Below the pieces are notes generated by a model, which was given only the letters and a program-made list of their open reading frames with translations, was not told where the DNA came from and searched no databases. A stretch of 64,000 nucleotides of DNA, taken from an uncultured Pseudomonadota bacterium. GTDB taxonomy: Bacteria; Pseudomonadota; Alphaproteobacteria; RF32; CAG-239. Made by a program: the position numbers and the translations under genes. Location of the stretch: contig CASFJL010000003.1 in the NCBI GenBank assembly GCA_949295005.1, forward strand, positions 1,118 to 65,117. The letters are read 5' to 3'. This document shows positions 4,338-26,990 of the stretch, in pieces (position 1 is the stretch's first letter; every line of letters begins with the position of its first letter).

Positions 4338-4985
4338 TTATATATTTTTACCAATTAAAGCTGTGGTTACTTCTCTTGCTTTTATAGAATCCATTTGCGA
4401 TAATATGGCTGAAGAAGAACTGGGTTTCATCTGTCTTAATATGGCAACCAAAATATCTATATCAAAGGTGTTAAAAATTCTTGCAGCGTCTTTGGGTTTC
4501 ATTGTTGCATACATCTTTACCAATGAAGCTAATTGTTCTTGTTCTTGCTCATTATATCTATTGATTAATTTTTGCAATTTTTCTTCATAGCTTTTTAATT
4601 GAGCTAATTTTTTATCTATTTCATCTTCTGCGACCTTTAATTGCAGAGCTTTTTTATCAATTTCTTCAGAACGGACATCAAGAGCTTCTCTTCTTTCTGC
4701 TAATTCTTGTAATATATTGATTTCAGATTGGCTGAAACTGGAATTATTCTGCGCGTTTCCCATATTTGGAATGTTATGACCATCTAAAATTTGGTTTAAT
4801 TGTTGTGTTTCTGCTTTTTCTTGTTCTTCTGCCAAGGCTTTGTTTTGTGATATGCTTATTTTGGGCAGCTCACGATTGATTATGGTATTGTATACATAAT
4901 TTATTTTTACAGATAAAGATAATACTCCCACAAAAATAAAGATGGGAAGCAAGCGTATTTTATTTTTCTTTTTTTGAATATACAT
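4338..4985 (-). CDS. MotE/FlbB-like flagellar-locus protein (membrane anchor, coiled coil, MgtE-N-like C-terminal domain)
   Basis: N-terminal hydrophobic anchor (LLPIFIFVGVLSLSV) and a Q/E/K-rich coiled coil. The C-terminal LASLVKMYATMKPKDAARIFNTFDIDILVAILRQMKPSSSSAILSQMD resembles the MgtE-N-type repeat of MotE-like proteins. It sits inside the fliLM array. Confidence 0.55.
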   Translation of the reverse strand: MYIQKKKNKIRLLPIFIFVGVLSLSVKINYVYNTIINRELPKISISQNKALAEEQEKAETQQLNQILDGHNIPNMGNAQNNSSFSQSEINILQELAERREALDVRSEEIDKKALQLKVAEDEIDKKLAQLKSYEEKLQKLINRYNEQEQEQLASLVKMYATMKPKDAARIFNTFDIDILVAILRQMKPSSSSAILSQMDSIKAREVTTALIGKNI

Positions 4986-11989: not shown

Positions 11990-12032
11990 AAAAAATATCC
12001 CAAAACTTTAATGTTTTGGGATATTTTTTTTT
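11990..12032. terminator. Bidirectional rho-independent terminator between convergent genes
   Basis: aaaaaATATCCCAAAACtttaatGTTTTGGGATATtttttttt: a 12-bp perfect stem with A and T runs on both sides. Confidence 0.8.
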
Positions 12033-12044
12033 ACTTTTACTTAT

Positions 12045-12659
12045 TTATTCATAATTTTCAATATAGCTGTTGTTGGCAACATACATATTCAAATAACGGC
12101 GGATATTTTGATCCATTTTTGCGTTAAATTCATTGAATAATTTTGTTACCATAGAGTTCCAGTATTGTTCCTTTTCAATAATATCTGTATCTGCAGGAAT
12201 GATTAATTCTCTCCATGCGATAACTTCTGTTTCTGCTTTTGATAAGCTTTTTGTGTCTTTTATTTGAATGACAACATCTAAATTTGCACGATATTTGATG
12301 CGGTCTTTGGTGAACATTTCTTGTGCTTTTTCAATCTCTTCAGTGACACTTGCATCTTTAATAATAACGGTTGCAATTTTGTCAGAGCCAAAATCAACCG
12401 CTTTTAATCTGTCACGAGCCCAAGTTTTTGCGGTTTTTTCAATGGAGATTGGAAACAAGTGTTCAACATTCGGACGTGTGAAAGTTGGTGTAAACTCTGA
12501 AACAATTTCAATCTTTTTTACTTTTAAGTCAATAGGTTCCAAATTGCTGAAACGAGGTTCACGGTAATTGCTGGTTTCTTCTTCCGTATTCATGGAAGCA
12601 CAGGCAGAAACAAGTGTAATCATCATTACAACAGGTAAAATTCTTTTAAATATTCTCAT
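12045..12659 (-). CDS. Hypothetical lipoprotein
   Basis: 204 aa with the lipobox signal MRIFKRILPVVMMITLVSAC/AS. I recognise no family. Confidence 0.65.
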   Translation of the reverse strand: MRIFKRILPVVMMITLVSACASMNTEEETSNYREPRFSNLEPIDLKVKKIEIVSEFTPTFTRPNVEHLFPISIEKTAKTWARDRLKAVDFGSDKIATVIIKDASVTEEIEKAQEMFTKDRIKYRANLDVVIQIKDTKSLSKAETEVIAWRELIIPADTDIIEKEQYWNSMVTKLFNEFNAKMDQNIRRYLNMYVANNSYIENYE

Positions 12660-12724
12660 TTTTTATAGTCCTAATAGTTATTTATTTTTTTTTTGTATTA
12701 TCCTATATATAAATTAACATGTCG

Positions 12725-13639
12725 TTAATGATTTATAATTTCCCCTTTGTCAAAAACATATTTTTCACCGCAAAAATGACATTCTGCCGTGATTTTTCCG
12801 TCTTCTGCCAAATGTTCAATTTCTTCCTTATCAAAAGAACGCAGCGTATTTAAAAGTTTTTCTCTATTGCAACGGCAACCAAATTTATATTCTATACTTT
12901 TGGTAATGACTAAATTGTTATTATGGTATAGGCGGTGCAAAATATCTTCTGCGTTCAAATCTGCATTGAAAATTTCATCCGCAGTTAAGGAATGCATAAA
13001 GACTTGAGCTTGATTCCAAGCTTCTTTTGCTTCTTCTTCATCTAATTCTTCTTTGCCGCCTTTGCTTGGCATCTTCTGAATCATAATACCGGCAGCGCTC
13101 CAGCTTTTTGATTCTCCTTGCGGTGGCAGTATAAACAATTGCAAGTCTGTGTCAATTTGTTCTGATTGTTTGAAATAACGTAAAGCACATTCAGACAAAT
13201 TCTTGCCTCTTAAGTCAACAATGCCTTGATAAAGTTGAGTGTTTTCTCCCTGATCAACCGTGAAGGCTAATCTGCCTTCTCCCATCAAATGCGGTGCAGG
13301 TTCAATCTCACCGCTCATTTTTCTTAACGCTTGAGATTTTTTTAAGTGTTCTTCATCAAACTTGGCGCAAGCACGCATGGTTCCATCAGATTTTACATCT
13401 ACAACAACCATAGGAACAGGTCCATTGCTTTCTGTTTGTAATGTAAACAAACCTTCATATTTGATTGAGCTGGCTAACATGGCCGCTAAAACAGAACTTT
13501 CAGCAATCACGCCGGAAACAGGCAGCGGATATCCATGTTTTTGTAAAATGGTGTCTATTACTTTGTTTAATCTGATTAAACGTCCCCTGAAAGCGCCGTT
13601 ATCAATATGAAATGACGTGCAAATATCAAAATTTTTCAA
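12725..13639 (-). CDS. hslO: Redox-regulated chaperone Hsp33
   Basis: 304 aa with the C-terminal zinc centre CRCNREK...CHFCGEKY (CxC...CxxC). The Hsp33 N-terminal domain is colinear. Confidence 0.9.
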   Translation of the reverse strand: MKNFDICTSFHIDNGAFRGRLIRLNKVIDTILQKHGYPLPVSGVIAESSVLAAMLASSIKYEGLFTLQTESNGPVPMVVVDVKSDGTMRACAKFDEEHLKKSQALRKMSGEIEPAPHLMGEGRLAFTVDQGENTQLYQGIVDLRGKNLSECALRYFKQSEQIDTDLQLFILPPQGESKSWSAAGIMIQKMPSKGGKEELDEEEAKEAWNQAQVFMHSLTADEIFNADLNAEDILHRLYHNNNLVITKSIEYKFGCRCNREKLLNTLRSFDKEEIEHLAEDGKITAECHFCGEKYVFDKGEIINH

Positions 13640-13657
13640 ATTTTATCCCCTTAATTA

Positions 13658-14260
13658 ATGATTTTTATAAATATATCTGCTACATATGTAATGATTTTTT
13701 TAGGAGTTTGCAAGTTGTTTGATGAAATTGAAAAGCCCAAAAAGAAAAAAGTGTTAAAAAAAATAACACCGCAACGATTGAGAAATATTGCTCTTTATTA
13801 TCTAAAGCGTTATGAAACATCTACGGCAAACTTGCGCCAAGTTTTGCGTAAACGTGTTAATGATTATGCTTTTTATAATAAAGAGTTTGATAAGCAAGAA
13901 GCCTATGCTTGGATAGAAGATATTGTTGCTGATTTTTTGCGCTATGGTTATGTGGATGATGAACGCTTTGCCGAAATTAAAATCAGAGATTATAAACAAA
14001 TGGGAAAATCAGTTCGCTATATTAAGGCAAAACTTAAAGAAAAGGGCGTAAACGATGATTTGGTTGAACAATTGCTTGAAACTCAAGATTATGATGAATT
14101 GCAAGCAGCTCTAAAGTTTGCGCAAAAAAAACGAATCGGACGTTTTCGCGCTGCCGACAAACAATTTGAATACAAGCAAAAAGATATGGCCGCATTGGCT
14201 CGTGCCGGTTTTTCTTATGATGTTGTCTGTGAAGTTTGTCAAATGCACGAAGATTTTTAA
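13658..14260 (+). CDS. recX: Recombination regulator RecX (start uncertain; possibly the internal Met at 13691)
   Basis: RLRNIALYYLKRYETSTANLRQVLRKRV followed by repeated three-helix RecX-type units. The ORF start lies only 18 nt from the divergent hslO start, so the true start may be further downstream. Confidence 0.8.
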   Translation: MIFINISATYVMIFLGVCKLFDEIEKPKKKKVLKKITPQRLRNIALYYLKRYETSTANLRQVLRKRVNDYAFYNKEFDKQEAYAWIEDIVADFLRYGYVDDERFAEIKIRDYKQMGKSVRYIKAKLKEKGVNDDLVEQLLETQDYDELQAALKFAQKKRIGRFRAADKQFEYKQKDMAALARAGFSYDVVCEVCQMHEDF

Positions 14261-15063
14261 TATTCCACTTTGCTTAAGTATAATCCGCAAGCAGGCGCAT
14301 TAGGGCCTGATTTTCTTCTGTCTTTGGCTTCCAAAATGGTTTTTATCTCTTCTGGTTTAATTTGATTGTTACCGACCATTTTTAATGTGCCAACCATGTT
14401 TCTGACCTGATGATGCAGAAAGGAGCGTGCCTCAACAATAAAATCAATCTCATCTCCGTTTTGAATGATATCTAATTTGTCCAGCGTTTTTATCGGAGAT
14501 TTTGCCTGACAAGCCGCAGCTCGGAAAGAAGTGAAGTCATGCTGACCAAGCAAGTACTTTGCACCTTCTTGCATTTTTTCAACATCTAAAGGATAAGGCA
14601 CCCACCAAACTCGATTTTTTTGCAGGGCAGGGAATGAACGTCGGTTCAAAATCTTATAAATATAGCCTCGACCTTTGGCTGAAAAACGTGCATTAAAATC
14701 GTCTGAGACTTTTTCTACTTTTAATACACTCATGGCTATGTCTTGGCTGCGGAGGTGATGGTTTAAGCCTTGTAACATTCTAAACTCATCAATATCTTTA
14801 TCCATATCAAAATGCACCACCTGACACAGAGCGTGCACTCCGGCATCAGTTCTTCCGGCGCATTGAACGGTGATTTGCGGTTCTTTACCAAAAACGGCAA
14901 AAGGATTATAGAGATTGCCTTTTTCATCGGCTGAAACTTTTTCAACCCCTGTAAAGCAAGCAATGGCTGTTTCCAAATATTCTTGTGCGCTGGGACCGTC
15001 TAGTTGCCTTTGCCAACCTAAAAGATTGGTGCCATCGTATTCTAATGTTAATTTGTATCTCAT
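14257..15063 (-). CDS. truA: tRNA pseudouridine(38-40) synthase TruA
   Basis: MRYKLTLEYDGTNLLGWQRQ and the catalytic motif GRTDAGVHA. The length of 268 aa is typical. Confidence 0.93.
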   Translation of the reverse strand: MRYKLTLEYDGTNLLGWQRQLDGPSAQEYLETAIACFTGVEKVSADEKGNLYNPFAVFGKEPQITVQCAGRTDAGVHALCQVVHFDMDKDIDEFRMLQGLNHHLRSQDIAMSVLKVEKVSDDFNARFSAKGRGYIYKILNRRSFPALQKNRVWWVPYPLDVEKMQEGAKYLLGQHDFTSFRAAACQAKSPIKTLDKLDIIQNGDEIDFIVEARSFLHHQVRNMVGTLKMVGNNQIKPEEIKTILEAKDRRKSGPNAPACGLYLSKVEY

Positions 15064-15132
15064 TTATTTTCTTAAAACATGTATAATGGACGATTAGGGT
15101 AAAAGTTCGTATTTCATTAGCTTTTTTCCACC

Positions 15133-15165
15133 AAAAAAAGGGGGTAAAACTTATCCCCTTTTTTA
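15133..15165 (-). terminator. Rho-independent terminator after the oxidoreductase gene
   Basis: aaaaaaaGGGGgtaaaacttatCCCCtttttt: a short GC stem flanked by A and T runs, located between the stop at 15196 and the truA start. Confidence 0.55.
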
Positions 15166-15195
15166 TTATAAAACTTTGCTTTTGGCAATGCTTTA

Positions 15196-16218
15196 TTATG
15201 CTACTTTGCTTAAATTTTCTTGAGGCATTTCTTCCTGCCATAAGCCTAATTTTTTCTGAATAGCCCAAATAACACGCAAAGCTTCCAATGCATTTTGACC
15301 GCTGATTCTTGGAGTTTCTTTGCCGTTAACACAGTTTACAAAGTGGGTTAATTCTGCTGTCAAAGGTTGGTTAGTTGGAATGAACAATTGCTCAACACTG
15401 CCTTTCAAGCCATAGTTCATCCAATCCGGAATGCTTTCTTGGTTAACATAAGGCATACGTCCTTGAGAATGAACATTAATGCTTTGGTTGATGAAGTCCA
15501 TGTCAATGTAGTTGGTATCTGTTGTAACAGTTAAGGTACGAACACGGGCTTGGGTAATACGGCTAGCGGTGATGTTGGCTGTAACCCCGTTTTCAAATGT
15601 GAGTAAAGCCGTGATATAATCTTTTCCTTCCGGATGATCCGGTGTGGTAACGGCTGCGGCTTGAATGTCTTTAATTGGAGATTGAACCAAAGACAAAATG
15701 ATTTCAGCATCATGAATCATTAAGTCCATAGAAACATCAACGTCTGTGATACGACCGCTGGCTGCAGACATACGTTGAGCAGTCAAAGAACGAATCTTGT
15801 TGGTGTCATGCAACAATTTGTGCATTTGTTCAACCGCTGGGTTGAATTGTTCAATGTGGCCAACAAGCAAAGTTACGTTATTTTTTGCTGCGGCATTGAT
15901 TAAGCGTTGGCAACCTTCTTCCGTGGTGGCCAATGGTTTTTCCATCATGCAGTGGATGCCGCGGTTTAAGAAAAATTCACCAACATCAGCGTGGGTAACA
16001 GATGTGGTCACAACGCTGACAGCATCTACATTTGCAGCAACTTCTTCTAATGAAGAAAAGGCTTTAATCCCAAACATTTCGGCTGCTTTTTCTCTGGCTT
16101 CAGGAAAAATATCATATACGCCGACAAGTTCAACACCTTGAAGATTTTTGTATGTTTTAAGATGGTTTCTTCCCATCATACCCGCGCCAATAACGGCAAC
16201 TTTGAGTAAATTTGTCAT
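15196..16218 (-). CDS. Gfo/Idh/MocA family NAD(P)-dependent oxidoreductase
   Basis: N-terminal Rossmann motif KVAVIGAGMMGRNHL and the EKP motif (CMMEKPLA). The length is 340 aa. Confidence 0.85.
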   Translation of the reverse strand: MTNLLKVAVIGAGMMGRNHLKTYKNLQGVELVGVYDIFPEAREKAAEMFGIKAFSSLEEVAANVDAVSVVTTSVTHADVGEFFLNRGIHCMMEKPLATTEEGCQRLINAAAKNNVTLLVGHIEQFNPAVEQMHKLLHDTNKIRSLTAQRMSAASGRITDVDVSMDLMIHDAEIILSLVQSPIKDIQAAAVTTPDHPEGKDYITALLTFENGVTANITASRITQARVRTLTVTTDTNYIDMDFINQSINVHSQGRMPYVNQESIPDWMNYGLKGSVEQLFIPTNQPLTAELTHFVNCVNGKETPRISGQNALEALRVIWAIQKKLGLWQEEMPQENLSKVA

Positions 16219-16341
16219 CTTTATTTTCCTTAAATTTAAGTTTGCTGATTTATTTAGTTTACTATTAGCAAAAGTTTTGATAAAAATCTCTTAAATTCTT
16301 GTTACATATTGTTACATTTTGTTGAACATAAGGAAAATGAT

Positions 16342-18135
16342 ATGAAAATGTATACAAAACAAATATTTATGTCTTTTTTTGTGGGCGTTTTGCTTTCTTC
16401 TTGCTCAATGTTTGCGCCAAAAGAATCTGCTTTGAAAGAAAAAAATATTCCGACTCAGGTTCAAAAAGAAGAAGTTCAACACGTTAAAGGGCGTTTGGAT
16501 GTTTATGCTTCTATGGCGCGTTCAACAAAATATAATACAGAAAAAAATTATCAGAATTTGTCCGAAGTGTTGCAAAAACACTCTCAGCAAAAATCAGCTC
16601 AAGATTTGTTGGCTTATGTTAATAATAAATATAATGACAATTCTTTGTGGGCGGCTTCTCAAAAATTGGATTTTGCCATTTTATATGCCACAGTTGCTCT
16701 TTCTGATGATGGCGTTTTTGTTCATGATTATTTGTATAATTATGCTGCGCAACAAATTGCATTGGCAACCATTAAAGGGCAGAGCGAAGCTTTGTTTGCC
16801 CAAAGAAAACTGAAAGACTTAAACCGCCTGACAACCCAAACAGAAAAAAATGTTTTTAACCTTAACCAAAAATTGCTTAAAAAAGGGGCGTTGTCTGCAG
16901 AGGAGTTGGAGTATAAAAAATCTATTGAAGTTTCTTTGTATAATTTGAAGCAAATGCAAACTTCTTTGAATGATTCTTGGAACAATTTTGCAGATTTTGT
17001 TAAAACATCTCCCAAAAATTTGCATGTTAAAGGCAAGCATTTTTATGAATTGGAAGATTTTGATAAAAAAAATCAGTTAAGCACATTTCAATATGTTGCT
17101 CTTAATAATCGAGTTGAGTTTGATTTGGCAAGAAAAGAGATTTTGGGATTTAACGCTTTTCATTTATATGACAAAACTTTGCAGAATTATCCGGCTCTAA
17201 AGCGTTTGGAAATTAATGGTTTTGATTTTAAGGATAATCTCTATCAGCAAGAGTTGAAAAATAATGCTCAGTTAATTGTTGATAGTTTGCTTGACGGTGT
17301 TTCAGAATATCTTGTTGCCGGAAGTGCTGAAAAACAAAATGTGTTGCAACGTGAGGTGATGAGTAATCTTGGTGCGGCAATTTTGACACAGTTGACGGTT
17401 GATTATGTTTTGGTTGAAACAACTTCTGAAGATTTGTTACAAGCAAAAGAAAATGCAGCCTCTTTGCGTGCTGATATCAGACAAGATGAGCGTTTGAAAA
17501 AACATACCTCTGCTCAGTTGGCGCAATTGTTGCAAAAAAGATTAAAATTAAATGATGCTGAATTGTTGGTTAGTCAGATTCAAGGAGAAAGAGCTGTTGC
17601 TTTGCGTGCTTTGTATTTTCATAGCGGGTTGTCGGTCTTTTCTCAAGAGTTGTTAAAAAATAAATTGGAAGTAATTGAGGCCTCATTAAAAAAAGCTTTT
17701 AACAAAGATATGATTGAGATGCTTTCTCAAGCAAAAGATTTGGAAAAACAGCAAAAAACACAAGGAAACAACTGGGCAAAATCTGAAAATTGGTTGGAAG
17801 AACTTATTGATAAAAAAGCTAAAAAAACGCAAGAACCCATTATTTTGCCACAAAAACCAAAGGGTGATTTTTCTTTATATGAAGAAAAAGTTTTTGATAC
17901 TTATCCCGTGATGCAGTTGGGTGCTTATCGGCAAAAAGAAAACGCTGATATAGAATGGCAAATGTTGAAAGAATTGTATCCGGAGTTTGATTTGGTCAAA
18001 CCCAAAATCGAGAGCTCTGTTGTGAACGGAAAAATGATGTATCGTTTGATTATAAAATCTAAAAAAGGCGGCTTTTTAGATTTGTGCAACAAATTGAGAA
18101 AAGATAAAATTGAATGTATTTTAAAACAGAAATAA
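16342..18135 (+). CDS. SPOR-domain lipoprotein with a long helical N-terminal region
   Basis: ATG at 16342 after an AAGGAAAA RBS, and lipobox VGVLLSSC/S. The C-terminal YPVMQLGAYRQKENADIEWQMLKELYPEF...GKMMYRLII is a SPOR (septal peptidoglycan-binding) fold signature. Confidence 0.7.
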   Translation: MKMYTKQIFMSFFVGVLLSSCSMFAPKESALKEKNIPTQVQKEEVQHVKGRLDVYASMARSTKYNTEKNYQNLSEVLQKHSQQKSAQDLLAYVNNKYNDNSLWAASQKLDFAILYATVALSDDGVFVHDYLYNYAAQQIALATIKGQSEALFAQRKLKDLNRLTTQTEKNVFNLNQKLLKKGALSAEELEYKKSIEVSLYNLKQMQTSLNDSWNNFADFVKTSPKNLHVKGKHFYELEDFDKKNQLSTFQYVALNNRVEFDLARKEILGFNAFHLYDKTLQNYPALKRLEINGFDFKDNLYQQELKNNAQLIVDSLLDGVSEYLVAGSAEKQNVLQREVMSNLGAAILTQLTVDYVLVETTSEDLLQAKENAASLRADIRQDERLKKHTSAQLAQLLQKRLKLNDAELLVSQIQGERAVALRALYFHSGLSVFSQELLKNKLEVIEASLKKAFNKDMIEMLSQAKDLEKQQKTQGNNWAKSENWLEELIDKKAKKTQEPIILPQKPKGDFSLYEEKVFDTYPVMQLGAYRQKENADIEWQMLKELYPEFDLVKPKIESSVVNGKMMYRLIIKSKKGGFLDLCNKLRKDKIECILKQK

Positions 18136-18199
18136 TTTGTTTGTAAATATAATCAAAATATATTATATTATAAAATAAATTTGAAAATGAGTGGGAAAT

Positions 18200-19483
18200 A
18201 TGTCTGATTTTAATAATAAGTATTCTATTCCGCCAAAAAAGAATAAGCATAGCGAAGAGGAAGTTTTTGATTTTTCCTATGTTAAAAGTCCTATTCCTCC
18301 AAAAAAAACGGACACTTCTTTGTCTTATTCTTGGAAAGCAGTTTCTAAAGATGATACAGAAAAAAATTCCCCTCAGAAAAAGCCTTTAAGAGAATCTCAA
18401 ATTGCGGCAGCTGAAATTGCCATTGAACAAAAAATGTTCAAAGTGCCTGAACAAGAGATGCAAGATGCAAATCAAAATTTTTCCGGTAAAATAATAGAAG
18501 ATAAAAATTTTGCTAAAAAAGATTTATCTAATGCTGATTTTTCCGTAACGGATTTGTCCGGAGCTGACTTTTCCGGTGCTAATCTTGCAGGAGCAAATTT
18601 TGCAGGGGCAAACCTTTCGGAAGCAAATTTTTCAGGAGCTGATTTAAGCGGTGCAGTTTTGTCCGGTGCAAATTTATTGAAAACTAACTTTACCGGCGCA
18701 AAATTAAACAGAGTGACTTTGACTGAAGCAAATTTGGAAGAAGCCATTCTTTTAGGCATTGAAATTGATGATTTGGGCTTGGAAGAGCTCCAAACCTTGA
18801 TTGAATATATGGCAACATATTATCCGCATAAGCTTAATTTGACCAAGTTAAATTTGAGTTTGTTGGATTTAAGCAAAATTGATTTAACCAAGGTTAGTTT
18901 GAGAGGGGTTGATTTTACCGGCTGTTCTATGAAAGGGGTTAGAATTTGGGAGTTGGATTTAAGTGAATGCATTATTTCTCCCGAACAGATTGCAGAAGCT
19001 CTCGGTCGTGTACCCTCAGCATTGGAATTGGCCAAACTCCTTGCTCCTAAAAAATCTAAAAAACCACAAAAAAATTTGGGTGAAGATGTTATTAAATTCT
19101 TTTATGAAGTTAAAAAAGACTATGGTGTTTGGGATGTAACCAATGATAAAGGCTTGGATATTGGTAAGCTCGTTGAATCTGGCATGAAAGTTTTTAGAAA
19201 AGCAGTGGATAAACCCAAACCGCCTATGGAAGGCGAAGAATTGGTCGCTCATTTGAAGGAAGAAAGACAAAGCGATGATAAAAACAGAAATGAAATGTTA
19301 AAAGAAAAAATTATGCAGCGTAAAGAAGCTGAACGTAAGAAATTGGCAGAAAAAAAACAAGAATTTCAGCAAGAAGTCAGCCGCTCTCAACAAGAAAAAG
19401 ATGAGGAAATTAAGGTTTCTGAAAAGAATAAAAATTATCAAATGGTTGATAAAATGGTTCGTCGTGACAGAGGCCGAGAATAA
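18200..19483 (+). CDS. Pentapeptide-repeat protein with a charged K/E-rich C-terminal region
   Basis: About 19 consecutive A(D/N)LxX units ([77 protein letters not shown]) and a second, looser tract. The start is ATG at 18200 or GTG at 18191. Confidence 0.85.
18476..18754 (+). repeat. Coding tandem pentapeptide-repeat tract (15-nt period)
   Basis: Residues ~96-188 of the ORF are contiguous five-residue repeats, visible in the DNA as repeated gcNaat/gatttNtcNgg units. Confidence 0.8.
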
Positions 19484-19499
19484 GTGGTGGGCAAGATAA

Positions 19500-21725
19500 A
19501 TGTTTTTTTTTGCAAAAGATAAAAACTCTAAAAAATATATAATAAAAAAGTTTTTATTTATTTTATTTTTTCTTTTTATTTTTTTTGTTTTGTGTTTGGC
19601 TTTTATTGCTTTGGCAAAGCTTATTCATAAAGGTTTTAGTTTAAAAGTTTTTTATGAGGCTTTGAATTTTGCCAACAAAATTGCGGCAGACCCATTATAT
19701 TTATTTTCTGTCTATGAACAATATTTTAAGGTTTTTATTAAATCTGCACAGCACGATAATTTGACATTGGCAACGTGGCTGCCTATGTTTCCGATTTTTT
19801 TGTTTGGTGCATTTTTAATTTTTGTGGTTTATAAATGGGGCAAAAAATTTTATCGGAAAATAAAAAAATTTGAGTTCTCTTCAATTGAAAAATTGTTTGA
19901 AGAAAATATTTTTTCAAATAACTTTTTTGTTTTGGGACAAAACAAAAATGATTTATTGGAATTAAAACAACATAATTCTTTGTTGGTGCTTGGTGAGACA
20001 TCCAGTTCTAAAACTTCTTCTTGTGTTATTCCTTCTATTTTGGAAGCGGATAATTCTTCTTTATTTGTTGTTGCTTCTCAAAATGATGTGGCAAAATTTA
20101 CTTCCGGATACAGAGCTCAGTTAGGTAAAGTGTTTTATTTTAATTGGGGGTTGAGTGATGATGCTTCTAAAAAAGAGTTTTTGGCCAGATGGAATCCTCT
20201 CTCTCAGATGGAAATGCCTAAAAATAATTTGGAAAAAGAAGAATATTTATATGGTTTGTGTAAATATTTTATAACTTATGGTCTGAATGATAAAAGTGAT
20301 GATTTTGTAAATTATGAAAAATCTGTTATTATGACGATGTTTGCTCTTTTAAATTTTTTTGTTATGAAAATTGAAAGAGCTCAAGCCAATGATTATTTTT
20401 TAAGTCGATTTTTTGAAAATAAAAAATTGCATGCAGATGATAAAGATTTGCTCTTAAGTTATTATATTTTAATGGATAAAACTTATGCAAAAAATGCAAT
20501 TGATAATTTGCAAAAAAACAATCTTTCTTTGGAAAATTATTTACCGATTGGCAGTTGGGAAGGTGTTCCTGATAATTGGAAAGGCAAAGAACTTTGTTTT
20601 GCAATGTTTTATGATTGGTTGCTTCGTTGCTTTTTTAAATTTAAAAAACAAAATCAACCCCAGAGTGATTTGTGGCAAATATTGGCTGAATATTGCTTGG
20701 AAGAAACAGAATTTTTTGGTTATTCGGATAAGCAAAAAAAATTGTTAAAAAATGTATTATCTGTTTCTGCCGAGCAAAAATCGGTTATCTTTTCTGATAT
20801 ATTCAAATCTTTAGAGTGTTTTCAAATTCAAAGTGTTCGGGAAAGAACATCTACTAGTGATTTTTGTATTGCAGATTTATATAATTCCAATCAAGTGATT
20901 ACAGTTTATTCTATTGTGGAAGAAAAAATCTTTTATTTTATTAATAAGTTGTTTGTGGACATGGTCTTAAATTATAATTTTGTTCAGCAGACACCGTCAA
21001 ATATGGCATTTGTTTTTGATGATATTGAACAGCAACCGAGATATGAAGTTTTAGGAGACTTTTTTAAGCAAAATCAATTTGCAAATACATCTTTTTTAAT
21101 GACTGTTTCTTTTTATGATTTATTTAAGCAAAAATATCTTCATTCTGAAATTGTTTCTTTTTTGAAAAATATTTCATATAAGCTTTTGTTTGTGCAAAAT
21201 TATAAAAATGCGGCAAAATTATTGCAAAACGCTTTTATTGATTCTGACATTATTAACAATAATGATGAAAAAACAAAGGAATATTATAAAAGTTTGATTT
21301 GGGACATGAACAATAAAATTGTGCATGACCTTTCAAGAAAAGATGTTTTGTTGTTGGTCCCAAAGTTAAGTGAAACACCTTTTTGTTTGAAGGCAGCATA
21401 TTTTTTGCAAAATGAATATTTGAAAAGCAAAGCTGAAATGCAAACAGCTTATTTTTTGGATGAAAATCAATTTAACTTGCGTAATTCTCAAGATTTGGAT
21501 GTTCCTGATTTGTTGGTTACACTCAATAAGTTGGGATATCATCTGGAAAATATGGATGCATTAGATGATTTTTTGAAAAACCAGCAAAATGATGATGTGT
21601 TGAGTTTTGATGATGCTCCCACAAATACTTCCAAGCAAGAAACAGAAGCTGATTGGTGGCTTGAAGAAGATTTTTTTGAACATAAAAAAACTGAAAATAA
21701 GAATCCGTTTAAGACTTCCAATTAG
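19500..21725 (+). CDS. VirD4/TraG-like type IV coupling protein homologue with atypical nucleotide-binding motifs (orphan)
   Basis: Two N-terminal TM helices. LLVLGETSSSKTSSCVIPSILEADNSSLFVVASQNDVAKFTSGYRAQLGKVFYFNW...RWNPL is colinear with VirD4 (xxVxAPTRxGKGxxxVIPxLLxxxxSxxxxDxKGE...T...R...G.VFxF...NP). The Walker-B-like motif is AFVFDDIEQ. The gene is extremely AT-rich. Confidence 0.55.
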   Translation: MFFFAKDKNSKKYIIKKFLFILFFLFIFFVLCLAFIALAKLIHKGFSLKVFYEALNFANKIAADPLYLFSVYEQYFKVFIKSAQHDNLTLATWLPMFPIFLFGAFLIFVVYKWGKKFYRKIKKFEFSSIEKLFEENIFSNNFFVLGQNKNDLLELKQHNSLLVLGETSSSKTSSCVIPSILEADNSSLFVVASQNDVAKFTSGYRAQLGKVFYFNWGLSDDASKKEFLARWNPLSQMEMPKNNLEKEEYLYGLCKYFITYGLNDKSDDFVNYEKSVIMTMFALLNFFVMKIERAQANDYFLSRFFENKKLHADDKDLLLSYYILMDKTYAKNAIDNLQKNNLSLENYLPIGSWEGVPDNWKGKELCFAMFYDWLLRCFFKFKKQNQPQSDLWQILAEYCLEETEFFGYSDKQKKLLKNVLSVSAEQKSVIFSDIFKSLECFQIQSVRERTSTSDFCIADLYNSNQVITVYSIVEEKIFYFINKLFVDMVLNYNFVQQTPSNMAFVFDDIEQQPRYEVLGDFFKQNQFANTSFLMTVSFYDLFKQKYLHSEIVSFLKNISYKLLFVQNYKNAAKLLQNAFIDSDIINNNDEKTKEYYKSLIWDMNNKIVHDLSRKDVLLLVPKLSETPFCLKAAYFLQNEYLKSKAEMQTAYFLDENQFNLRNSQDLDVPDLLVTLNKLGYHLENMDALDDFLKNQQNDDVLSFDDAPTNTSKQETEADWWLEEDFFEHKKTENKNPFKTSN

Positions 21726-21818
21726 TTCTATTTTTGTTCTTAAAATTTAAAAAGTGCTGTTATTTTAAAGCAAAGTTTGCTAAGGTGTGCTTATTCTAAT
21801 AACGAATCGGTAAAAAAA

Positions 21819-23159
21819 ATGGAAGAAACTTTATTTTCAACAACTATCAAACGCCCGCTGGCTGACAGATTGCGTCCGCAGTCTTTGTCTGAAGTGGTGG
21901 GGCAAGACCATTTGGTCGGCGAGAATGCCCCGCTTGGTCGTATGATAAAGTCGGGAAAAATTACTTCCTTTATTTTATGGGGACCTCCGGGATGCGGAAA
22001 AACCACAATCGCACGTTTGATTGCCGAACATACAAATTTGTATTTTGAACAAATTTCTGCCGTTTTTTCCGGCGTTGCCGATTTGAAGCGCGTGTTTCAA
22101 TATGCGCAAGAAAGAAGAGCAACACAGGGCAAAGGCACATTGCTTTTTGTAGATGAAATTCATCGTTTTAACAAGTCGCAACAAGATGGCTTTTTACCTT
22201 ATGTGGAAGACGGTACGGTGATTTTGGTTGGAGCTACAACCGAAAATCCGTCTTTTGAACTTAATGCCGCTTTGCTTTCTCGTTGTCAGGTTTTTGTGCT
22301 GAACCGCTTGACTTCAGATGACTTTGAAGTGCTGTTAACCCGAGCCGAAAAAGAAATGGGCAAAAAACTTCCGGTTGATGAAGAAGCGCGCCAGTTTATG
22401 AAAGATACGGCAGACGGGGACGGACGATATATTCTTAATTTAGCAGAATCTGTCTGGTCATATGCAAAGCCGGAAGAAATTTTTGATAAAGAATCGATTA
22501 TGCGGATTATACGTTCGCGTGCGCCGATTTATGATAAAGGACGCGACGGGCATTATAATCTGATTTCGGCCGTGCATAAATCTCTGCGTGGCTCAGATGT
22601 GGATGCCGGTTTGTATTGGGTGGCGCGTATGCTGGAAGCCGGTGAAGACCCGAAATATATTTTTCGCCGTTTGACACGCTTTGCCGTTGAGGATGTTTCT
22701 TTGGCTGACCCTAATGCCGTGACACAAGCCATTTCTTGTTGGCAAACTTATGAGCGTTTGGGTTCGCCGGAAGGAGATTTGGCGCTTTATCAACTGACGG
22801 CATATTTGGCAACGGCACCCAAGTCGGCTTCTTTGTATAAATCAACTTATGCGGCTCGCGATTTGGCAAGAAGAACAGGTTCACTCATGCCGCCGAAAAA
22901 TATTTTGAATGCCCCGACCAAACTTATGCGTGATTTAGGTTACCATGAAGGATATGAATATGACCCCGATTGCGAAGATGGTTTTTCCGGAGCTAATTAT
23001 TTTCCCGATGGTGTGCGTCATACCAAACTTTATTTTCCGGTTGACCGGGGGTTTGAAAGAGAAATTAAGAAAAGAGTGGAATATTTTGAGCGTTTGCGCG
23101 CGGAAAAACAACGTGCCAAAGCGCAACAACAAAAACAAAATAAGGACAGTGAAAAATGA
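21819..23159 (+). CDS. rarA: Replication-associated recombination protein A (AAA+ ATPase RarA/MgsA)
   Basis: RPLADRLRPQSLSEVVGQDHL, Walker A GPPGCGKTT, Walker B LFVDEIHRFNK, and the MgsA C-terminal region (HYNLISAVHKSLRGSD). The ATG at 21819 is preferred over the ORF-track start at 21777. Confidence 0.93.
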   Translation: MEETLFSTTIKRPLADRLRPQSLSEVVGQDHLVGENAPLGRMIKSGKITSFILWGPPGCGKTTIARLIAEHTNLYFEQISAVFSGVADLKRVFQYAQERRATQGKGTLLFVDEIHRFNKSQQDGFLPYVEDGTVILVGATTENPSFELNAALLSRCQVFVLNRLTSDDFEVLLTRAEKEMGKKLPVDEEARQFMKDTADGDGRYILNLAESVWSYAKPEEIFDKESIMRIIRSRAPIYDKGRDGHYNLISAVHKSLRGSDVDAGLYWVARMLEAGEDPKYIFRRLTRFAVEDVSLADPNAVTQAISCWQTYERLGSPEGDLALYQLTAYLATAPKSASLYKSTYAARDLARRTGSLMPPKNILNAPTKLMRDLGYHEGYEYDPDCEDGFSGANYFPDGVRHTKLYFPVDRGFEREIKKRVEYFERLRAEKQRAKAQQQKQNKDSEK

Positions 23160-23515
23160 CAACTTTTTTGAGTGTGTTTTTAGGGGGCGGATTGGGTTCT
23201 ATTCTCCGCCATTTGGTTTGTTCTAAAATCGGTAATCATTGGGCGGTGATGAGTGTGAACTTGATGGGTGCCATGCTGATTGGTATTGCCTTTGAATATT
23301 TTGCCAACAAAGCAGGCTTGCGTCCGGAAGTGAGAGCTTTTGTGATTACCGGTATGCTCGGCGGTTTTACCACTTTTTCAACTTATATGCTTGATTTTGG
23401 AAACTTGATGACCAATGCCAAAATGGTGGAGGGATTTTTGTATCTCTTGGGCTCACTCATCTTGGGAATCGGGTTCTTGTTTATCGGCATTAAAATCGGC
23501 AAGCTTTGTTTTTAG
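23156..23515 (+). CDS. crcB: Fluoride ion channel CrcB/FluC
   Basis: 119 aa with four TM segments and the motifs GGLGSILRH and GGFTTFSTY. Its start overlaps the rarA stop (ATGA). Confidence 0.9.
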   Translation: MTTFLSVFLGGGLGSILRHLVCSKIGNHWAVMSVNLMGAMLIGIAFEYFANKAGLRPEVRAFVITGMLGGFTTFSTYMLDFGNLMTNAKMVEGFLYLLGSLILGIGFLFIGIKIGKLCF

Positions 23516-23584
23516 GTTGATTTTTTTTCTTATTTACGATAGTTTGTGAGCAAATAAAAATTATTAATCTTAAAAATTTGTATT

Positions 23585-23809
23585 ATGGTTGATTTGAAAG
23601 ATGTTGCTGAAGAGCTTGTTCGTTTGTCATCGAAAGAAGTGCAAAAGTTGGCGGAAGTGATGAAAGAAGAATATGGTATTGAGACAGCCGCCCAAGAGGT
23701 TAGTATCATAAGAGATGACAAAGCTCCGCTTTCTCGCCAACAACGTCGTAAACGTGAACGAGAAGCTCAAAAAAAAGAGGCAAAAAAAAGACAGAAAAAA
23801 CGCGGATGA
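23585..23809 (+). CDS. Small protein resembling the N-terminal (dimerisation/L10-binding) domain of ribosomal protein bL12, fused to an Arg/Lys-rich tail
   Basis: MVDLKDVAEELVRLSSKEVQKLAEVMKEEYGIETAAQ aligns by eye with the bL12 N-terminal domain (E. coli [36 protein letters not shown]). The hinge and C-terminal GTPase-interacting domain are replaced by RQQRRKREREAQKKEAKKRQKKRG. Confidence 0.5.
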   Translation: MVDLKDVAEELVRLSSKEVQKLAEVMKEEYGIETAAQEVSIIRDDKAPLSRQQRRKREREAQKKEAKKRQKKRG

Positions 23810-23826
23810 AAATTCGCGTTTTTTTT
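23797..23826 (+). terminator. Possible rho-independent terminator after the bL12-NTD-like ORF
   Basis: AAACGCGgatgaaaattCGCGTTTtttttt: a 7-bp stem enclosing the stop codon, followed by a T run. Confidence 0.5.
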
Positions 23827-23896
23827 GTTTTAAATTCGCTTGTTTTTTTATCTCCCTTCCGCTACACTTTGAAAAGTTTTTAAGAAAGGGAATCTG

Positions 23897-24832
23897 ATGT
23901 CCGGCGTAGAGATTAAAAAAGTTAAAGATGTTGATGATGGTATGCGTTTGAACCGTTGGTTTTTGAAGTATTATCCGGGGCTCTCTCTCGGTCGTTTTCA
24001 AAAGCTTCTTCGAACTAAACAAATCAAAGTGGACGGCAAAAAAGCTGAAGCATCTCTCAAACTTATCGCCGGACAAGAAATCAGAGTGCCGCCTTTGGAT
24101 AATGAAGCCAATGCAACACAAGAGCGCAAAGGTATATCTGCCAAAGACGCGGCTTATATTCAATCGATGGTCATTTATAAAGATGACAATATCATCGCTT
24201 TGAACAAGCCTTCCGGATTGGCCGTGCAGGGCGGAACTAACACGACGCGCCATGTGGACGGTATGCTTGAGGCTTTGTGTTTTGGATTAGAAGAAAAGCC
24301 TAAGCTCGTGCATCGCATTGATAAGGAGACCAGCGGAATTCTGATTTTGGCACGTAATCGCAAATCTGCCGATATGCTGACAAAAGCATTTCGCGAACAT
24401 AATTTGCAAAAGACTTATTTGACTTTGGTTGCCGGTTGTCCCAAACAGCAAAACGGCGAAATTAAAGCTGCGTTGGAAAAAGTGGGTGAAAAATCAATCA
24501 TATCTAAAGATGGAAAACCGGCTTTGACCGAGTTTGAAGTTTTGGATAATGCCGGTGCCAAATTTGCATTAGTCGCTGCGGCACCGCTTACCGGACGCAC
24601 ACACCAAATTCGTGCGCATATGGAATATATCGGTTGTCCGATTGTCGGTGACGACAAATATTTTGGTCAAGCAAGACAGAAATTTGCTTTTGTTAGTGAT
24701 AAATTACACCTTCATGCCTACAAAATTGATTTATCAGATTTATATCAAAAGAAGATGATTATAACTGCACCTCTGCCTGAGTATTTTAAGGCAGATTTAG
24801 AAGCTATCGGTTTAAGTTTTAGGGAGTTTTAA
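23897..24832 (+). CDS. RluA-family 23S rRNA pseudouridine synthase (RluC-like) with an N-terminal S4 domain
   Basis: The S4-like N-terminus reads MRLNRWFLKYYPGLSLGRFQKLLRTKQIKVDGK. The catalytic motif is LVHRIDKETSGILILARN, and the conserved GRTHQIRAH is present. Confidence 0.9.
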   Translation: MSGVEIKKVKDVDDGMRLNRWFLKYYPGLSLGRFQKLLRTKQIKVDGKKAEASLKLIAGQEIRVPPLDNEANATQERKGISAKDAAYIQSMVIYKDDNIIALNKPSGLAVQGGTNTTRHVDGMLEALCFGLEEKPKLVHRIDKETSGILILARNRKSADMLTKAFREHNLQKTYLTLVAGCPKQQNGEIKAALEKVGEKSIISKDGKPALTEFEVLDNAGAKFALVAAAPLTGRTHQIRAHMEYIGCPIVGDDKYFGQARQKFAFVSDKLHLHAYKIDLSDLYQKKMIITAPLPEYFKADLEAIGLSFREF

Positions 24833-24833
24833 G

Positions 24834-26990
24834 ATGAAAAAATTGTTTAAAATTCTTTTCAGCACAATCTTTATTTTGTTTGCCGTTTTGGTTGTCGGCG
24901 TGTTTGTGTTTATCAAAACTTTTGATTTGAACAGTTATAAATCTTATGCCGAAAAAATGGTGCAAGAGCAACTTGGACGTAAGCTTTCTTTGAACGGGGA
25001 AGCTTATTTAGGTATTTCTCTTGTTCCGACGATTGTTTTGGAAGATGTGGAATTTGCCAACCCAACTTGGGCTAAAAATCCGCAAATGGTGAAGGTGAAA
25101 AAACTTGATGTAAAATTTGCCATTTTGCCGTTGCTTAATAAGCAAATTGTGATTGATAAGGTGATTTTGGAAGAGCCTCTTATCAATTTGGAAGTGGCAA
25201 AAAACGGTGATGCCAGTTGGGATTTTCCGGCTTTAGATACCCCGCAACCAGAACCGGTGAAGAAGGCTGAAAGAGGTTGGCTGATATCGGTTGCCAATGC
25301 AACGGAAACAGCGGTTCCGGCTGAAACTTCCGCTCCTGATGCCATGTTGACAAGCATTGTTGCCAAAATGGTGCAGATTGAAAACGGAACTCTTGTTTAT
25401 GATGATGCACAAAGCGGAAGCAAAACCGAAGTGGTTATTAATCATCTGGATTTATCTATTCCGACACCTGATGATTTGATTACGCTTAATGTGGATGCCC
25501 TCTATAACGGTGAGCAGATTATTGCCAGTGGTACCGTCGGCTCAATTACCGAGGCTTTGGCGGATAAAGTTTATCCGATTAATTTGCAGGTTAAGGCTTA
25601 TGGTATGGCTGCCAAAGCCAAAGGTAATTTGAATAATATGCTTTCAAAATTGACCTATAACCTCAATTTGCAACTTGTGAACCCGCAGGGCAATTTCGGT
25701 GCGCCGGAGATTGTTTTTGATGGTTTGGTCAATGGCGGTTTGGATAATGTGAAAACAAAAATCAATCAGCTTTCGGTTGCCGGAAACGTGATGAAAGGTG
25801 AGGTGGATGCCGATATTTCGCAAAAAGTTCCCTTTATCAGAGCCAATTTGCAAAGCGACCAGATTGATGTGCAAAAGTTTATGCCGCAACAACAAGCTTT
25901 GGTTTTGCCGAGTTTGAATCTTATTTCTTCGGCCAATGCCGCAAATTATATTCCGGCAGAGCCTATCCCGTATGATGTGTTGAAAACGGTTAATGCTGTG
26001 TTTGATTTGTCTGTTGGAAATTTGATTGTCGATAGTGGATTTTCTATGCAAAACGTGTTGGTTAAAGGCTCGCTCAAAAATGCTGTATTGACAATCAATC
26101 CGCTTAATCTGACATTTAATGGCGGACAGATTATGTCTGAACTTAATGTGGATGCCAATGCCAAAAGTTTGAGCCTGAAAGCCAACAGCAAAAATTTGAA
26201 ACTGCAAAATTTGCATAAAGAATTTCAGGTCATTAACAGCACTGATTTTGGTATTAAAAGGGGCGGTGATACTATCGTTTATATTGATTTGAAAAGTTCA
26301 GGTAATACCTATCGTCAAGTGTTTGAAGGCTTGACAGGTCAAACCGCAATTACCCTTGATAAATCGGTTATCCAAACCGGTAATTTGAGCTTTTTTACCG
26401 GAAGTTTCTTAACCCAAGTTTTGGATGCGTTGCACCTCAAGCAAAAGACTATGGATATGGATGTGCGTTGTGCCGTCATTCGTACCGATTTTGCTAATGG
26501 ACGTGCAATTTTTCCGCAAGGTATTGCTCTGAATGCGGCGCAAATGAGTTTGGTGAGTGATGGTTATGTGAACCTCGTGAATGATAAAATCAGCTTTACC
26601 TTGCAACCTTTCTCAGGAAAAGTTGTTGATACCAATATTGCGCAAGCTTTGTCATCATTTCTGCGTATCAGCGGAACGGTAGAAAACCCAACCATTCGTT
26701 TGGATGATAAAGAGGCATTGCGTGCGGTGATTGGTGTGGTGGCAACCGGCGGTACGGCTTATTTGGGTGAAAAGCTGATTATCAATCCCGATGGTTCTCC
26801 ATGCTATACAGCTTTGCAAGGAACACCTTTTGCAACCATGTTTCCTAAACCGACAGGCGTGGCCGCAACAACACGAGATGTCTACAAAGATACGGAAAAA
26901 GAGATTAAAAAAGGTGTGAATGATTTGAAAAACACAGCCAAAGATATGTGGAATATGTTTAAAGGACAATTAAAAAATGGTTCAAAATGA
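24834..26990 (+). CDS. AsmA-family outer-membrane biogenesis protein
   Basis: 718 aa. The N-terminal anchor plus the AsmA N-domain signature reads FVFIKTFDLNSYKSYAEKMVQEQLGRKLSLNGEAYLGISLVPTIVLEDVEFANP. The body is long and beta-rich, and an AsmA-like C-terminal region is present. Confidence 0.8.
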   Translation: MKKLFKILFSTIFILFAVLVVGVFVFIKTFDLNSYKSYAEKMVQEQLGRKLSLNGEAYLGISLVPTIVLEDVEFANPTWAKNPQMVKVKKLDVKFAILPLLNKQIVIDKVILEEPLINLEVAKNGDASWDFPALDTPQPEPVKKAERGWLISVANATETAVPAETSAPDAMLTSIVAKMVQIENGTLVYDDAQSGSKTEVVINHLDLSIPTPDDLITLNVDALYNGEQIIASGTVGSITEALADKVYPINLQVKAYGMAAKAKGNLNNMLSKLTYNLNLQLVNPQGNFGAPEIVFDGLVNGGLDNVKTKINQLSVAGNVMKGEVDADISQKVPFIRANLQSDQIDVQKFMPQQQALVLPSLNLISSANAANYIPAEPIPYDVLKTVNAVFDLSVGNLIVDSGFSMQNVLVKGSLKNAVLTINPLNLTFNGGQIMSELNVDANAKSLSLKANSKNLKLQNLHKEFQVINSTDFGIKRGGDTIVYIDLKSSGNTYRQVFEGLTGQTAITLDKSVIQTGNLSFFTGSFLTQVLDALHLKQKTMDMDVRCAVIRTDFANGRAIFPQGIALNAAQMSLVSDGYVNLVNDKISFTLQPFSGKVVDTNIAQALSSFLRISGTVENPTIRLDDKEALRAVIGVVATGGTAYLGEKLIINPDGSPCYTALQGTPFATMFPKPTGVAATTRDVYKDTEKEIKKGVNDLKNTAKDMWNMFKGQLKNGSK

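Follow-up and report, generated by a model that had tools for sequence, protein, structure and literature searches.

A conserved gene pair on the core chromosome

The 64,000-nucleotide stretch of DNA considered here, called the window throughout, comes from an uncultured Pseudomonadota bacterium (contig CASFJL010000003.1, positions 1,118 to 65,117 of the forward strand). On its forward strand lies a conserved cluster of three genes, which encode in turn a 597-amino-acid (aa) lipoprotein (16342..18135), a 430-aa cytoplasmic pentapeptide-repeat protein (PRP; 18191..19483) and, as the last gene of the cluster in this clade, a 741-aa protein (19500..21725) resembling the type IV coupling proteins (T4CPs) of type IV secretion systems (T4SSs). 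The open reading frame (ORF) of this T4CP-like protein encodes exactly the sequence quoted in a preliminary description of the same DNA, and comprises two transmembrane (TM) helices, a nucleotide-binding domain (NBD), an enlarged all-alpha domain (AAD) and a C-terminal tail. It is best read as a functional member of a small, lineage-specific, chromosomal family that was vertically inherited from a conjugative coupling protein.

A word-indexed search returns more than 600 full-length homologues of 740-830 aa, and all of the named ones belong to metagenome-assembled genomes (MAGs) entitled "Alphaproteobacteria bacterium". A scan of one genome per GTDB species yields 80 loci, all in uncultured gut-associated Alphaproteobacteria. 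Their hosts, CAG:495, Candidatus Scatocola (placed under Rhodospirillales by NCBI) and MAGs labelled "Azospirillum sp.", are what we take to be the GTDB order RF32. The gene order, a GFO-type oxidoreductase gene followed by the genes for the lipoprotein (580-620 aa), the PRP and the T4CP-like protein and then by rarA, rluC and asmA, is retained in 79-82 of 82 loci. Within it the lipoprotein gene precedes the PRP gene in 79 of the 82, and the PRP gene lies immediately 5′ of the T4CP-like gene in every one.

This last arrangement extends well beyond the window's clade. Distant clades recovered in a metagenome scan, with 22-30% identity to the T4CP-like protein, occupy housekeeping contexts of quite different kinds. 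In L124, L134 and L156 pepN is on the upstream and an ODP/flavodoxin gene on the downstream side; lspA-pgi lies upstream in two others, with either addAB (L155) or HlyIII (L158) downstream; and a 1013-aa member (L157) has FTHFS upstream and glycogen phosphorylase downstream. Linkage to rarA is limited to one clade, and the PRP gene sits directly upstream in every distant clade and context examined; at L157 the end of the PRP gene and the start of the T4CP-like gene even share one base, 10001. The conserved unit is the pair of PRP and T4CP-like genes, and the earlier characterization of the coupling protein gene as "stand-alone" has to be abandoned. A promoter/terminator scan found fewer terminator-like sites than in shuffled sequences, and none between the three genes of the cluster. 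In the literature on RF32/CAG-495 secretion, on coupling proteins with pentapeptide proteins and on orphan chromosomal T4CPs, we found no published description of such a module.

The family is also small when measured against its superfamily. A profile search of 1.84 billion representatives gave 4208 T4CP-superfamily matches at E ≤1e-3, about 45 of which are full-length family members carrying the motifs ANDYFL and YLPIGSW; those ranked just below them are canonical APPGTGKT...LDEFPQMP coupling proteins lacking both. Some PRP-linked members reach about 1000 aa (P0213, P0297, P0300, P0303; L157, 10001-13042) and are extended at the C-terminus by 230-280 aa that match no Pfam family. Outside the window, one representative from the exhaustive search, P0318 (1169 aa), is a canonical-type T4CP with LDEFPQMP and a match to PF05203, a Hint/homing-endonuclease-associated domain, near its N-terminal third (E 2.4e-7); it is probably an intein-containing coupling protein.

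A divergent coupling protein fold

The T4CP-like protein is a true but very divergent homologue of the VirD4/TraG-type coupling proteins. The Pfam profile for the TraG/TraD family, PF02534 (T4SS-DNA_transf), scores 43.1 bits on it, where the gathering cutoff is 20.1 (E 3.4e-11; strongest over aa 159-242), which disposes of the possibility, raised earlier, that no T4CP profile would recognize it; other family members also match PF10412 and PF12696. The NCBIfam models of TraG/VirD4 subfamilies score only 20-31 bits against cutoffs of 250-674, and the protein therefore falls into no named subfamily. Its best annotated sequence relatives are two plasmid T4CPs (Sphingosinicella sp. BN140058 p1, WP_165356653.1; Thalassospira lucentensis plasmid, WP_317337054.1), found by tblastn with family member P0107 (E 2e-24, 23% identity). 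Both share with the family two TM helices, a RecA-like NBD split by an AAD, a similar length and the motifs TSGYRA, R(W/F)NxLS and V(R/K)ERTSxxDF. Their surroundings differ fundamentally: the plasmid T4CPs adjoin virB8/9/10/11, with a MobA/L relaxase gene near one of the two and a PRP gene at neither conjugative locus, whereas the T4CP-like family resides on the core chromosome with its PRP gene upstream.

Structural comparison leads to the same family by a different route. A PDB search with the single sequence gave no relevant match, and a profile built from 25 family members reached a sole PDB sequence, Helicobacter pylori Cagβ, over the Walker B half (E 1.7e-4). The AlphaFold model computed from the same 25-member alignment (pLDDT 82.6, pTM 0.76) matches Cagβ (Cag5, 8DOL; E 1.6e-12) and R388 TrwB (1E9R/1GKI; E 4e-6) best in a Foldseek search of the PDB, with target TM-scores of about 0.6 at a sequence identity of about 10%; Legionella DotL (6SZ9; E 1e-5), which has the same T4CP fold, VirB4 and HerA are also matched. 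A hydropathy scan marks hydrophobic segments at aa 11-48 and 88-114, and the model places helices at aa 11-44 and 90-121. These fit a transmembrane domain (TMD; 19551..19832) in which a periplasmic loop of some 50 aa separates TM1 (aa 18-41) from TM2 (aa 93-111), and bear out the two N-terminal TM helices and the T4CP layout proposed in the preliminary description. The helical region at aa 243-461 sits between Walker A and Walker B, which in the model gives an NBD of the TrwB type, split by an AAD. Membership among the FtsK/SpoIIIE translocases was considered and rejected: the FtsK_SpoIIIE Pfam domain has no match at E ≤1, the 50 best Foldseek matches showed no FtsK/SpoIIIE entry, and the protein has two TM segments, where at least four, a long linker and a gamma domain would be expected.

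Stepwise loss of the ATPase motifs

T4CPs are defined in part by a Walker A motif of the form G-x(4)-G-K-[ST] and a Walker B motif of the form hhhh-D-E, and mutants in these motifs abolish transfer (PMC7434980). Alignment with the two plasmid T4CPs confirms that the P-loop, the KGE block and the Walker B block of the window's protein are non-canonical, as first noticed. Its degenerate Walker A, GETSSSKT (aa 165-172; 19992..20015), stands opposite PPGAGKT and APGSGKT; read as G-ETSS-S-K-T it retains K171 and T172, while serines replace the inner glycines G168 and G170. The modeled geometry of the site consists of a strand at aa 161-165 and a helix at aa 171-182. The counterpart of the D-x-K-G-E block, ASQNDVA (20073..20093), aligns with NDPKPEL and FDIKGEL of the plasmid proteins and with NDMKGEL of basal family members. 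In the Walker B region, MAFVFDDIEQQP (aa 502-513; 21003..21038; model strand aa 502-507), FVFDDIE aligns with FMMDEF and FLLDEF of the plasmid T4CPs and LMLMDEF of Cagβ; the FVFDD of the window does not conform to the consensus, and Asp508 occupies the position of the catalytic glutamate. In ASCE P-loop ATPases, of which the FtsK/HerA/T4CP group is part, the catalytic base is the glutamate that follows the Walker B aspartate. In brief, the GxGKT, D-x-K-x-E and DEF of the plasmid proteins are replaced in the window by GETSSSKT, ASQND and DDI.

A census of 83 aligned orthologous sequences of the window's clade refines this picture by separating deviations that are shared from those that are private. 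Position 508 is D in 73 sequences, N in eight, G in two and E in none, so that the change from DE is clade-wide, and the KGE block is degenerate across the clade as well. The Walker A lysine, in contrast to these, is universal (83/83), as is the threonine or serine after it (83/83), and the glycine before it (position 170) is present in 80/83; serine takes its place in 2/83, the window and locus L008, with L083, 99% identical to the window, not inspected here. In the window and L008 both inner P-loop glycines have become serine or threonine, GETS(S/T)SKT, and this loss is private to the window's lineage. Basal PRP-linked clades are canonical throughout, with GAPESGKT (GxxGxGK[ST]), NDxKGEL and LDE[FY]; the plasmid T4CPs carry the same GxxGxGK[ST], ND-x-KGEL and LDE[FY] pattern. 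The substitutions are therefore common in the derived part of the family and not among bona fide T4CPs, which argues against reading the protein as an ordinary coupling protein. Together, the family forms a series: a complete ATPase site in basal members, no catalytic glutamate in the window's clade, and neither glutamate nor P-loop glycines in the window's lineage. The acceptance of asparagine and glycine at the glutamate position argues that hydrolysis is no longer selected in the window's clade, where, judged from these motifs, ATP hydrolysis has probably been lost.

Conserved elements outside the ATPase site

In the usual T4CPs the NBD is conserved and the AAD, the domain that recognizes the cognate substrate, is variable (PMC7434980). 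Here conservation, expressed as the share of columns in the 83-sequence alignment whose top residue reaches a frequency of at least 0.9, is 26% in the AAD core (aa 285-365), 24% in the Walker A half of the NBD, 7% in the Walker B half, and 0-6% in the TMD and periplasmic loop, the least conserved part. With an AAD core as conserved as the Walker A half and a Walker B half that is only weakly so, the usual T4CP pattern is inverted. The AAD core contains a family-specific insert (20382..20591) with three motifs, QANDYFL (aa 295-301), LLSYY (aa 318-322) and NYLPIGSWEGVPxxWxGKE (aa 346-364). QANDYFL, LLSYY and NYLPIGSW are invariant or nearly so in the family alignment A1, and the insert motifs occur in all PRP-linked clades and are missing from the two plasmid T4CPs.

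A second conserved element is the acidic-aromatic motif of the C-terminal tail, DWWLEEDFFEHKKTENKNPF (aa 718-737; 21651..21710), in which W719, W720, E723, F726, N735, P736 and F737 are invariant in A1. Its pattern, DWWLxExaF...NPF, is found as WW[LM]..E..F in 74 and as NPF in 75 of 82 orthologues. The low pLDDT of the tail suggests that it is disordered. The plasmid T4CPs have neither the ANDYFL...YLPIGSW insert nor the WW...NPF tail, and distant clades of the family, also without WW...NPF, carry an acidic EEDKLPPPEDMSVEP tail in its stead. The window's protein, for all its departures in the ATPase site, retains every AAD and C-terminal motif.

The pentapeptide-repeat partner

The PRP, with its tandem A(D/N)LXX repeats, matches the Pfam Pentapeptide family (PF00805) at 103.6 bits (E 3.6e-30), and its PDB matches, which descend to E 3e-32, include QnrB1, MfpA and the IcmE repeats. 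The protein lacks a signal peptide. An acidic repeat region (~18506-18970; mean net charge -8.5), taken to form a beta-helix, is followed by a charged helical region and, at the very end, by a conserved arginine-rich tip, MVRRDRGRE (19454-19480). The last 10 aa contain on average 2.96 arginines against 0.49 expected, a six-fold excess, and at least two in 82/82 orthologues. Within the window's clade the tips read RDRGRE, RGRDSR, RDRSRD or RGGNER, and in distant clades the C-termini end in ...VRRARVKRQRQKQRS or ...RRSRVRRQRQRS. Substrates of VirB/D4 systems are marked for transport by a positively charged, arginine-containing C-terminal motif (PMC10025392). Pentapeptide repeats are common to the PRP, the DNA mimics Qnr/MfpA, the DotG/IcmE repeats and the rickettsial protein cREM-4, with an acidic repeat region in the PRP. 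Unlike these proteins it has long N- and C-terminal extensions and an arginine-rich tip and is genetically fixed to the T4CP-like gene, and it falls far below the NCBIfam equivalog cutoffs for Qnr/MfpA. Most orthologues also have a motif, W(S/H/K)AVS, in the N-terminal extension some 45-50 residues from the start.

The evolutionary distances of the cluster proteins are correlated once those of housekeeping genes are controlled for. The partial correlation is 0.67 between the T4CP-like protein and the PRP and 0.73 between the T4CP-like protein and the lipoprotein, with all three proteins mutually at 0.56-0.73; the correlations of cluster proteins with an equally fast neighbor, asmA, are lower, at 0.39-0.46.

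The upstream SPOR lipoprotein

The first gene of the cluster (16342..18135; mechanical ORF start 16309, TTG) encodes a lipoprotein with the lipobox LLSSC (nt 16390-16404) and a C-terminal SPOR domain (~17911-18132; Pfam SPOR, 22.8 bits against a cutoff of 21). Its AlphaFold model (pLDDT 80.8) consists of long helical hairpins followed by the SPOR domain. The long antiparallel hairpins recall TolC and other outer membrane factors (OMFs), and the SPOR domain is as in RlpA, whose SPOR domain the C-terminus also matches in Foldseek. The likeness to TolC is best described as resemblance rather than membership in view of the model, which has no beta-barrel strands, and of the Pfam scan, in which OEP (PF02321) has no match. 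We know of no layout in which a TolC-like helical region is fused to a SPOR domain. In one distant clade an exported ORF of 351-370 aa precedes the PRP gene; it was examined as a possible homologue and rejected (E 0.13 with --max). Other distant clades have nothing at the lipoprotein's place.

A candidate membrane receptor

A somewhat better than even case can be made that the T4CP-like protein has been domesticated from a VirD4-type coupling protein and serves as the inner-membrane docking site for the PRP encoded beside it, with hydrolysis dispensable in this clade. The protein would assemble in the inner membrane as T4CPs do, and the PRP would dock through the family-specific AAD insert. 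The basic tail of the PRP may then pair with the acidic-aromatic C-terminal tail of the T4CP-like protein, a pairing that would copy the recognition of positively charged C-terminal signals by VirD4. With the catalytic glutamate and the P-loop glycines gone, the protein of the window's lineage would be a receptor or scaffold rather than a motor, independent of nucleotide or at most binding it. Of the two alternatives offered in the preliminary description, a decaying remnant or a repurposed, possibly ATPase-impaired receptor or adaptor, the evidence favors the second. The descriptive parts of this account are near-certain, whereas the docking mechanism, as well as the contact between PRP and T4CP-like protein, the oligomeric state, the loss of hydrolysis and the cellular output, is inferred from the features described above.

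Known T4CPs provide partial precedents. The title of entry 8DOL describes Cagβ as regulated by a small partner, CagZ, an example of a dedicated T4CP-binding protein. Cagβ and TrwB differ in being parts of T4SSs and in having DE in Walker B, and neither of their partners, CagZ for the one and the relaxosome for the other, is related to pentapeptide-repeat proteins. The C-terminal extension of DotL recruits adaptor proteins. It is comparable, as a docking site, with the conserved tail motif described here; DotL acts in a secretion system of type IVB, Dot/Icm, together with DotM, DotN and IcmSW, and no such genes were found at the T4CP-like loci.

A broader proposal, clearly more tentative, is that the PRP–T4CP-like pair, joined in some clades by an exported or lipoprotein partner, constitutes an envelope module that is independent of T4SSs: a conjugative coupling protein would have been exapted as the membrane receptor of an arginine-tailed, DNA-mimic-like protein, with ATP hydrolysis dispensable in derived clades. 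Were this so, the fast, allele-class evolution of the cluster described below would point to a role where the cell meets mobile elements, phages or its host. Conceivably, the module would act as a decoy that sequesters conjugative or phage DNA-processing proteins, or as an export route through the TolC-like lipoprotein.

Several points weigh against the docking proposal. The physical contact between PRP and T4CP-like protein is deduced, and no PRP–T4CP fusion turned up among the family members of about 1000 aa, which contain no pentapeptide domain. The aspartate in place of the Walker B glutamate might still support slow hydrolysis. The correlated distances could stem from physical linkage or recombination of adjacent genes, as the elevated synonymous divergence (dS) of the cluster and its allele-class behavior would allow. 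Lipoprotein homologues are confined to the window's clade, with none in distant clades, and although the top Foldseek matches of the lipoprotein are all TolC/OMF channels, they are weak (E 3e-3 to 0.3, TM 0.3-0.45). Finally, the search for T4SS genes covered only the 64-kb window and ±10 kb of the other loci.

It is on this last point that the main rival finds its footing, namely that the protein serves in the ordinary way as coupling protein to a T4SS whose genes lie elsewhere, scattered as in some Alphaproteobacteria, and that the PRP is its dedicated effector, secreted by means of the arginine-rich signal. The tail of the PRP, kept across clades, fits the VirB/D4 signal class cited above, and the basal clades have a canonical ATPase site. 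In Rickettsia (Rickettsiales), cREM-4, which contains a pentapeptide repeat, is among the candidate rvh effectors, a list compiled from secretion reports, interaction with RvhD4 or targeting motifs (PMC11077975). We nevertheless regard this rival as unlikely. When all window ORFs of 150 aa or more were scanned against Pfam, neither a VirB/Tra/Dot component nor a relaxase came to light in the 64 kb, in agreement with the initial reading, and the genes identified were those of a core chromosome (fliM/fliL, hsp33, recX, truA, uvrA, ssb, gyrA, motAB, gcrA, spoT, two lepB, rnc, era, hda, flhB, fliR, mipZ). Nor does any PRP–T4CP-like context examined contain a T4SS or relaxase gene within 10 kb, a result repeated in four or five independent contexts, whereas the bona fide relatives adjoin virB8-11. 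Moreover, the catalytic glutamate is missing in all members of the window's clade, with asparagine and glycine tolerated, even though Walker mutants of T4CPs lose transfer; and the TMD, the part of T4CPs that contacts VirB10, is the least conserved of all.

Constraint and base composition in the window's lineage

Family-wide decay is excluded by synteny, by intactness and by selection. The ORF is intact in all but 1/83 extracted orthologues, the exception (L076, 641 aa) being a partial match near a contig end, and the ratio of non-synonymous to synonymous divergence (dN/dS, NG86) lies at 0.05-0.13 for nine pairs of other family members. A gene that is intact and syntenic in about 80 species under such constraint is no decaying remnant, contrary to the other alternative of the preliminary description as applied to the family.

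Decay confined to the window's own lineage, in which function would have been lost and the gene would be drifting with an AT bias towards a pseudogene, deserves separate treatment, since several measures there point to relaxed constraint or a shift. The T4CP-like gene has a GC content of 0.28 and, at third codon positions (GC3), of 0.23, the lowest of the 20 long window ORFs; its GC is also the lowest of all 69 orthologous loci compared, and its deficit relative to the flanks, -0.149, is the extreme of those loci (mean -0.051, sd 0.026). The P-loop glycines are lost in this lineage alone. Between the window and L008 (dS ~1.2) dN/dS is 0.25 by NG86, higher than elsewhere in the family. Of 90 highly conserved columns, 16 are altered in the window, where most other lineages tested differ at 0-11 (L011, at 20/93, differs at more). 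The comparison with the 99%-identical contig gives five non-synonymous and two synonymous differences, a count too small to weigh. Against this, a dN/dS of 0.25 is well under 1, 74 of the 90 conserved columns are kept together with all AAD and C-terminal motifs, and the partner genes are intact at dN/dS 0.09-0.15. Three independent assemblies (window, L083, L008) carry an unbroken ORF of 740-741 aa, and the P-loop change is older than the split of window and L008, both of which have kept their ORFs since. Retention at this length and dN/dS after the P-loop was lost indicates that the protein still has a role without a canonical P-loop, and renders decay in the lineage improbable. The AT-richness itself is partly a matter of context. 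The fast-evolving cluster genes are AT-shifted in all species, and the contrast with rarA (GC 0.44), to which the preliminary description drew attention, is real and partly inflated by an apparently recombinant block of higher GC that includes rarA and extends through asmA (21724-26963).

Still less probable is a role as a DNA-handling membrane ATPase, FtsK-like or devoted to DNA uptake or export, that would act on chromosomal DNA; the PRP, mimicking DNA, would regulate or plug it, and the SPOR lipoprotein would direct the complex to septal peptidoglycan. The FtsK/HerA fold common to T4CPs (PMC7434980), the acidic charge and Qnr/MfpA-like sequence of the PRP repeats, the SPOR domain itself and the presence of rarA and recX among the neighbors all lend themselves to this idea. 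Yet it is precisely the clade with the SPOR lipoprotein that has lost the catalytic motif, the lipoprotein is missing from the other clades, and rarA is a neighbor in one clade only.

Allele classes and recombination around the cluster

Compared with housekeeping genes, the cluster evolves faster by a factor of about 4.7, and does so in strikingly conserved surroundings. In a group of loci that their near-identical flanks suggest to be one genus, the flanking proteins are 92-100% identical while the T4CP-like proteins fall into classes that share just 35-43% (window and L008; L011; the L003 group). In L003, L004, L011, L023 and others compared with the window over the cluster (16342-21725), all three genes are deeply diverged. 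Between L003 and L004, dS is 0.9-1.6 within the cluster, higher than the 0.34-0.5 found in the flanks. The 5.2-kb block from 21724 to 26963, which holds rarA, crcB, a small ORF, rluC and asmA, is 91.3% identical at the nucleotide level to L003, a MAG of another species, against 78% for the left flank (12018-17153); identity to L008 is about 79% over the whole region. Its left edge falls in the final bases of the T4CP-like gene and its right edge where asmA ends, and its GC3 of 0.38-0.40 is above that of most of the window. Judged by these identities, the block looks like a recent import by homologous recombination. The jump in identity at the cluster edge, taken with the allele classes, argues that recombination around the cluster is frequent. 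The allele-class pattern could reflect diversifying selection with recombination, or homogenization of the flanks.

Least probable of all is that these rates, the diverged classes between flanks of 94-100% protein identity, the excess synonymous divergence of the cluster and a recombination boundary exactly at the end of the T4CP-like gene betray an arms race in a conflict system, a T4CP-derived decoy with a DNA-mimic PRP directed against conjugative elements or phages: PADLOC-DB 2.0 matches none of the three cluster proteins with any of its families at E ≤1, the cluster holds a fixed position in the core genome of about 80 species rather than in a variable defense island, and dN/dS indicates overall purifying selection.

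Implications and other features of the window

Coupling proteins count as indispensable to conjugation and type IV secretion, and "orphan" T4CP matches are usually read as debris of mobile elements or as markers of integrative and conjugative elements. The locus described here is of another kind: a T4CP-derived gene that is vertically inherited, under purifying selection, fixed in its place on the core chromosome across a lineage, and locked to a PRP partner. The motif series, from basal members through the glutamate-less clade to the P-loop-less lineage, could serve to separate the receptor role of T4CPs from their role as motors, and the pairing may lead to a function for one of the numerous pentapeptide-repeat proteins whose role is unassigned. 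A practical consequence is that, in predictions of conjugative elements from gut MAGs, such genes will give rise to false "T4CP" calls.

Three further features lie elsewhere in the window. On the reverse strand, a 990-aa ORF (7201-10173) matches Pfam Shufflon_N, the constant region of PilV-like type IV pilins (E 4.5e-14), and may encode a large pilin-like adhesin. It lies between fliL/fliM and several ORFs without a Pfam match, namely 10194-10970, 4338-4985 (weak MgtE_N) and 1450-4326 (958 aa, weak TPR). The small ORF of the apparently recombinant block (23585-23809, forward strand), between crcB and rluC, encodes 74 aa with a very lysine- and arginine-rich tail and an N-terminus weakly like the dimerization domain of ribosomal protein L7/L12 (PF16320, 19 bits, below the cutoff of 25), and is detectable in just 16/82 loci. 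Farther downstream, tandem signal peptidase I (Peptidase_S26) paralogues at 51820-52473 and 52566-53354, both on the forward strand, lie upstream of rnc and era.

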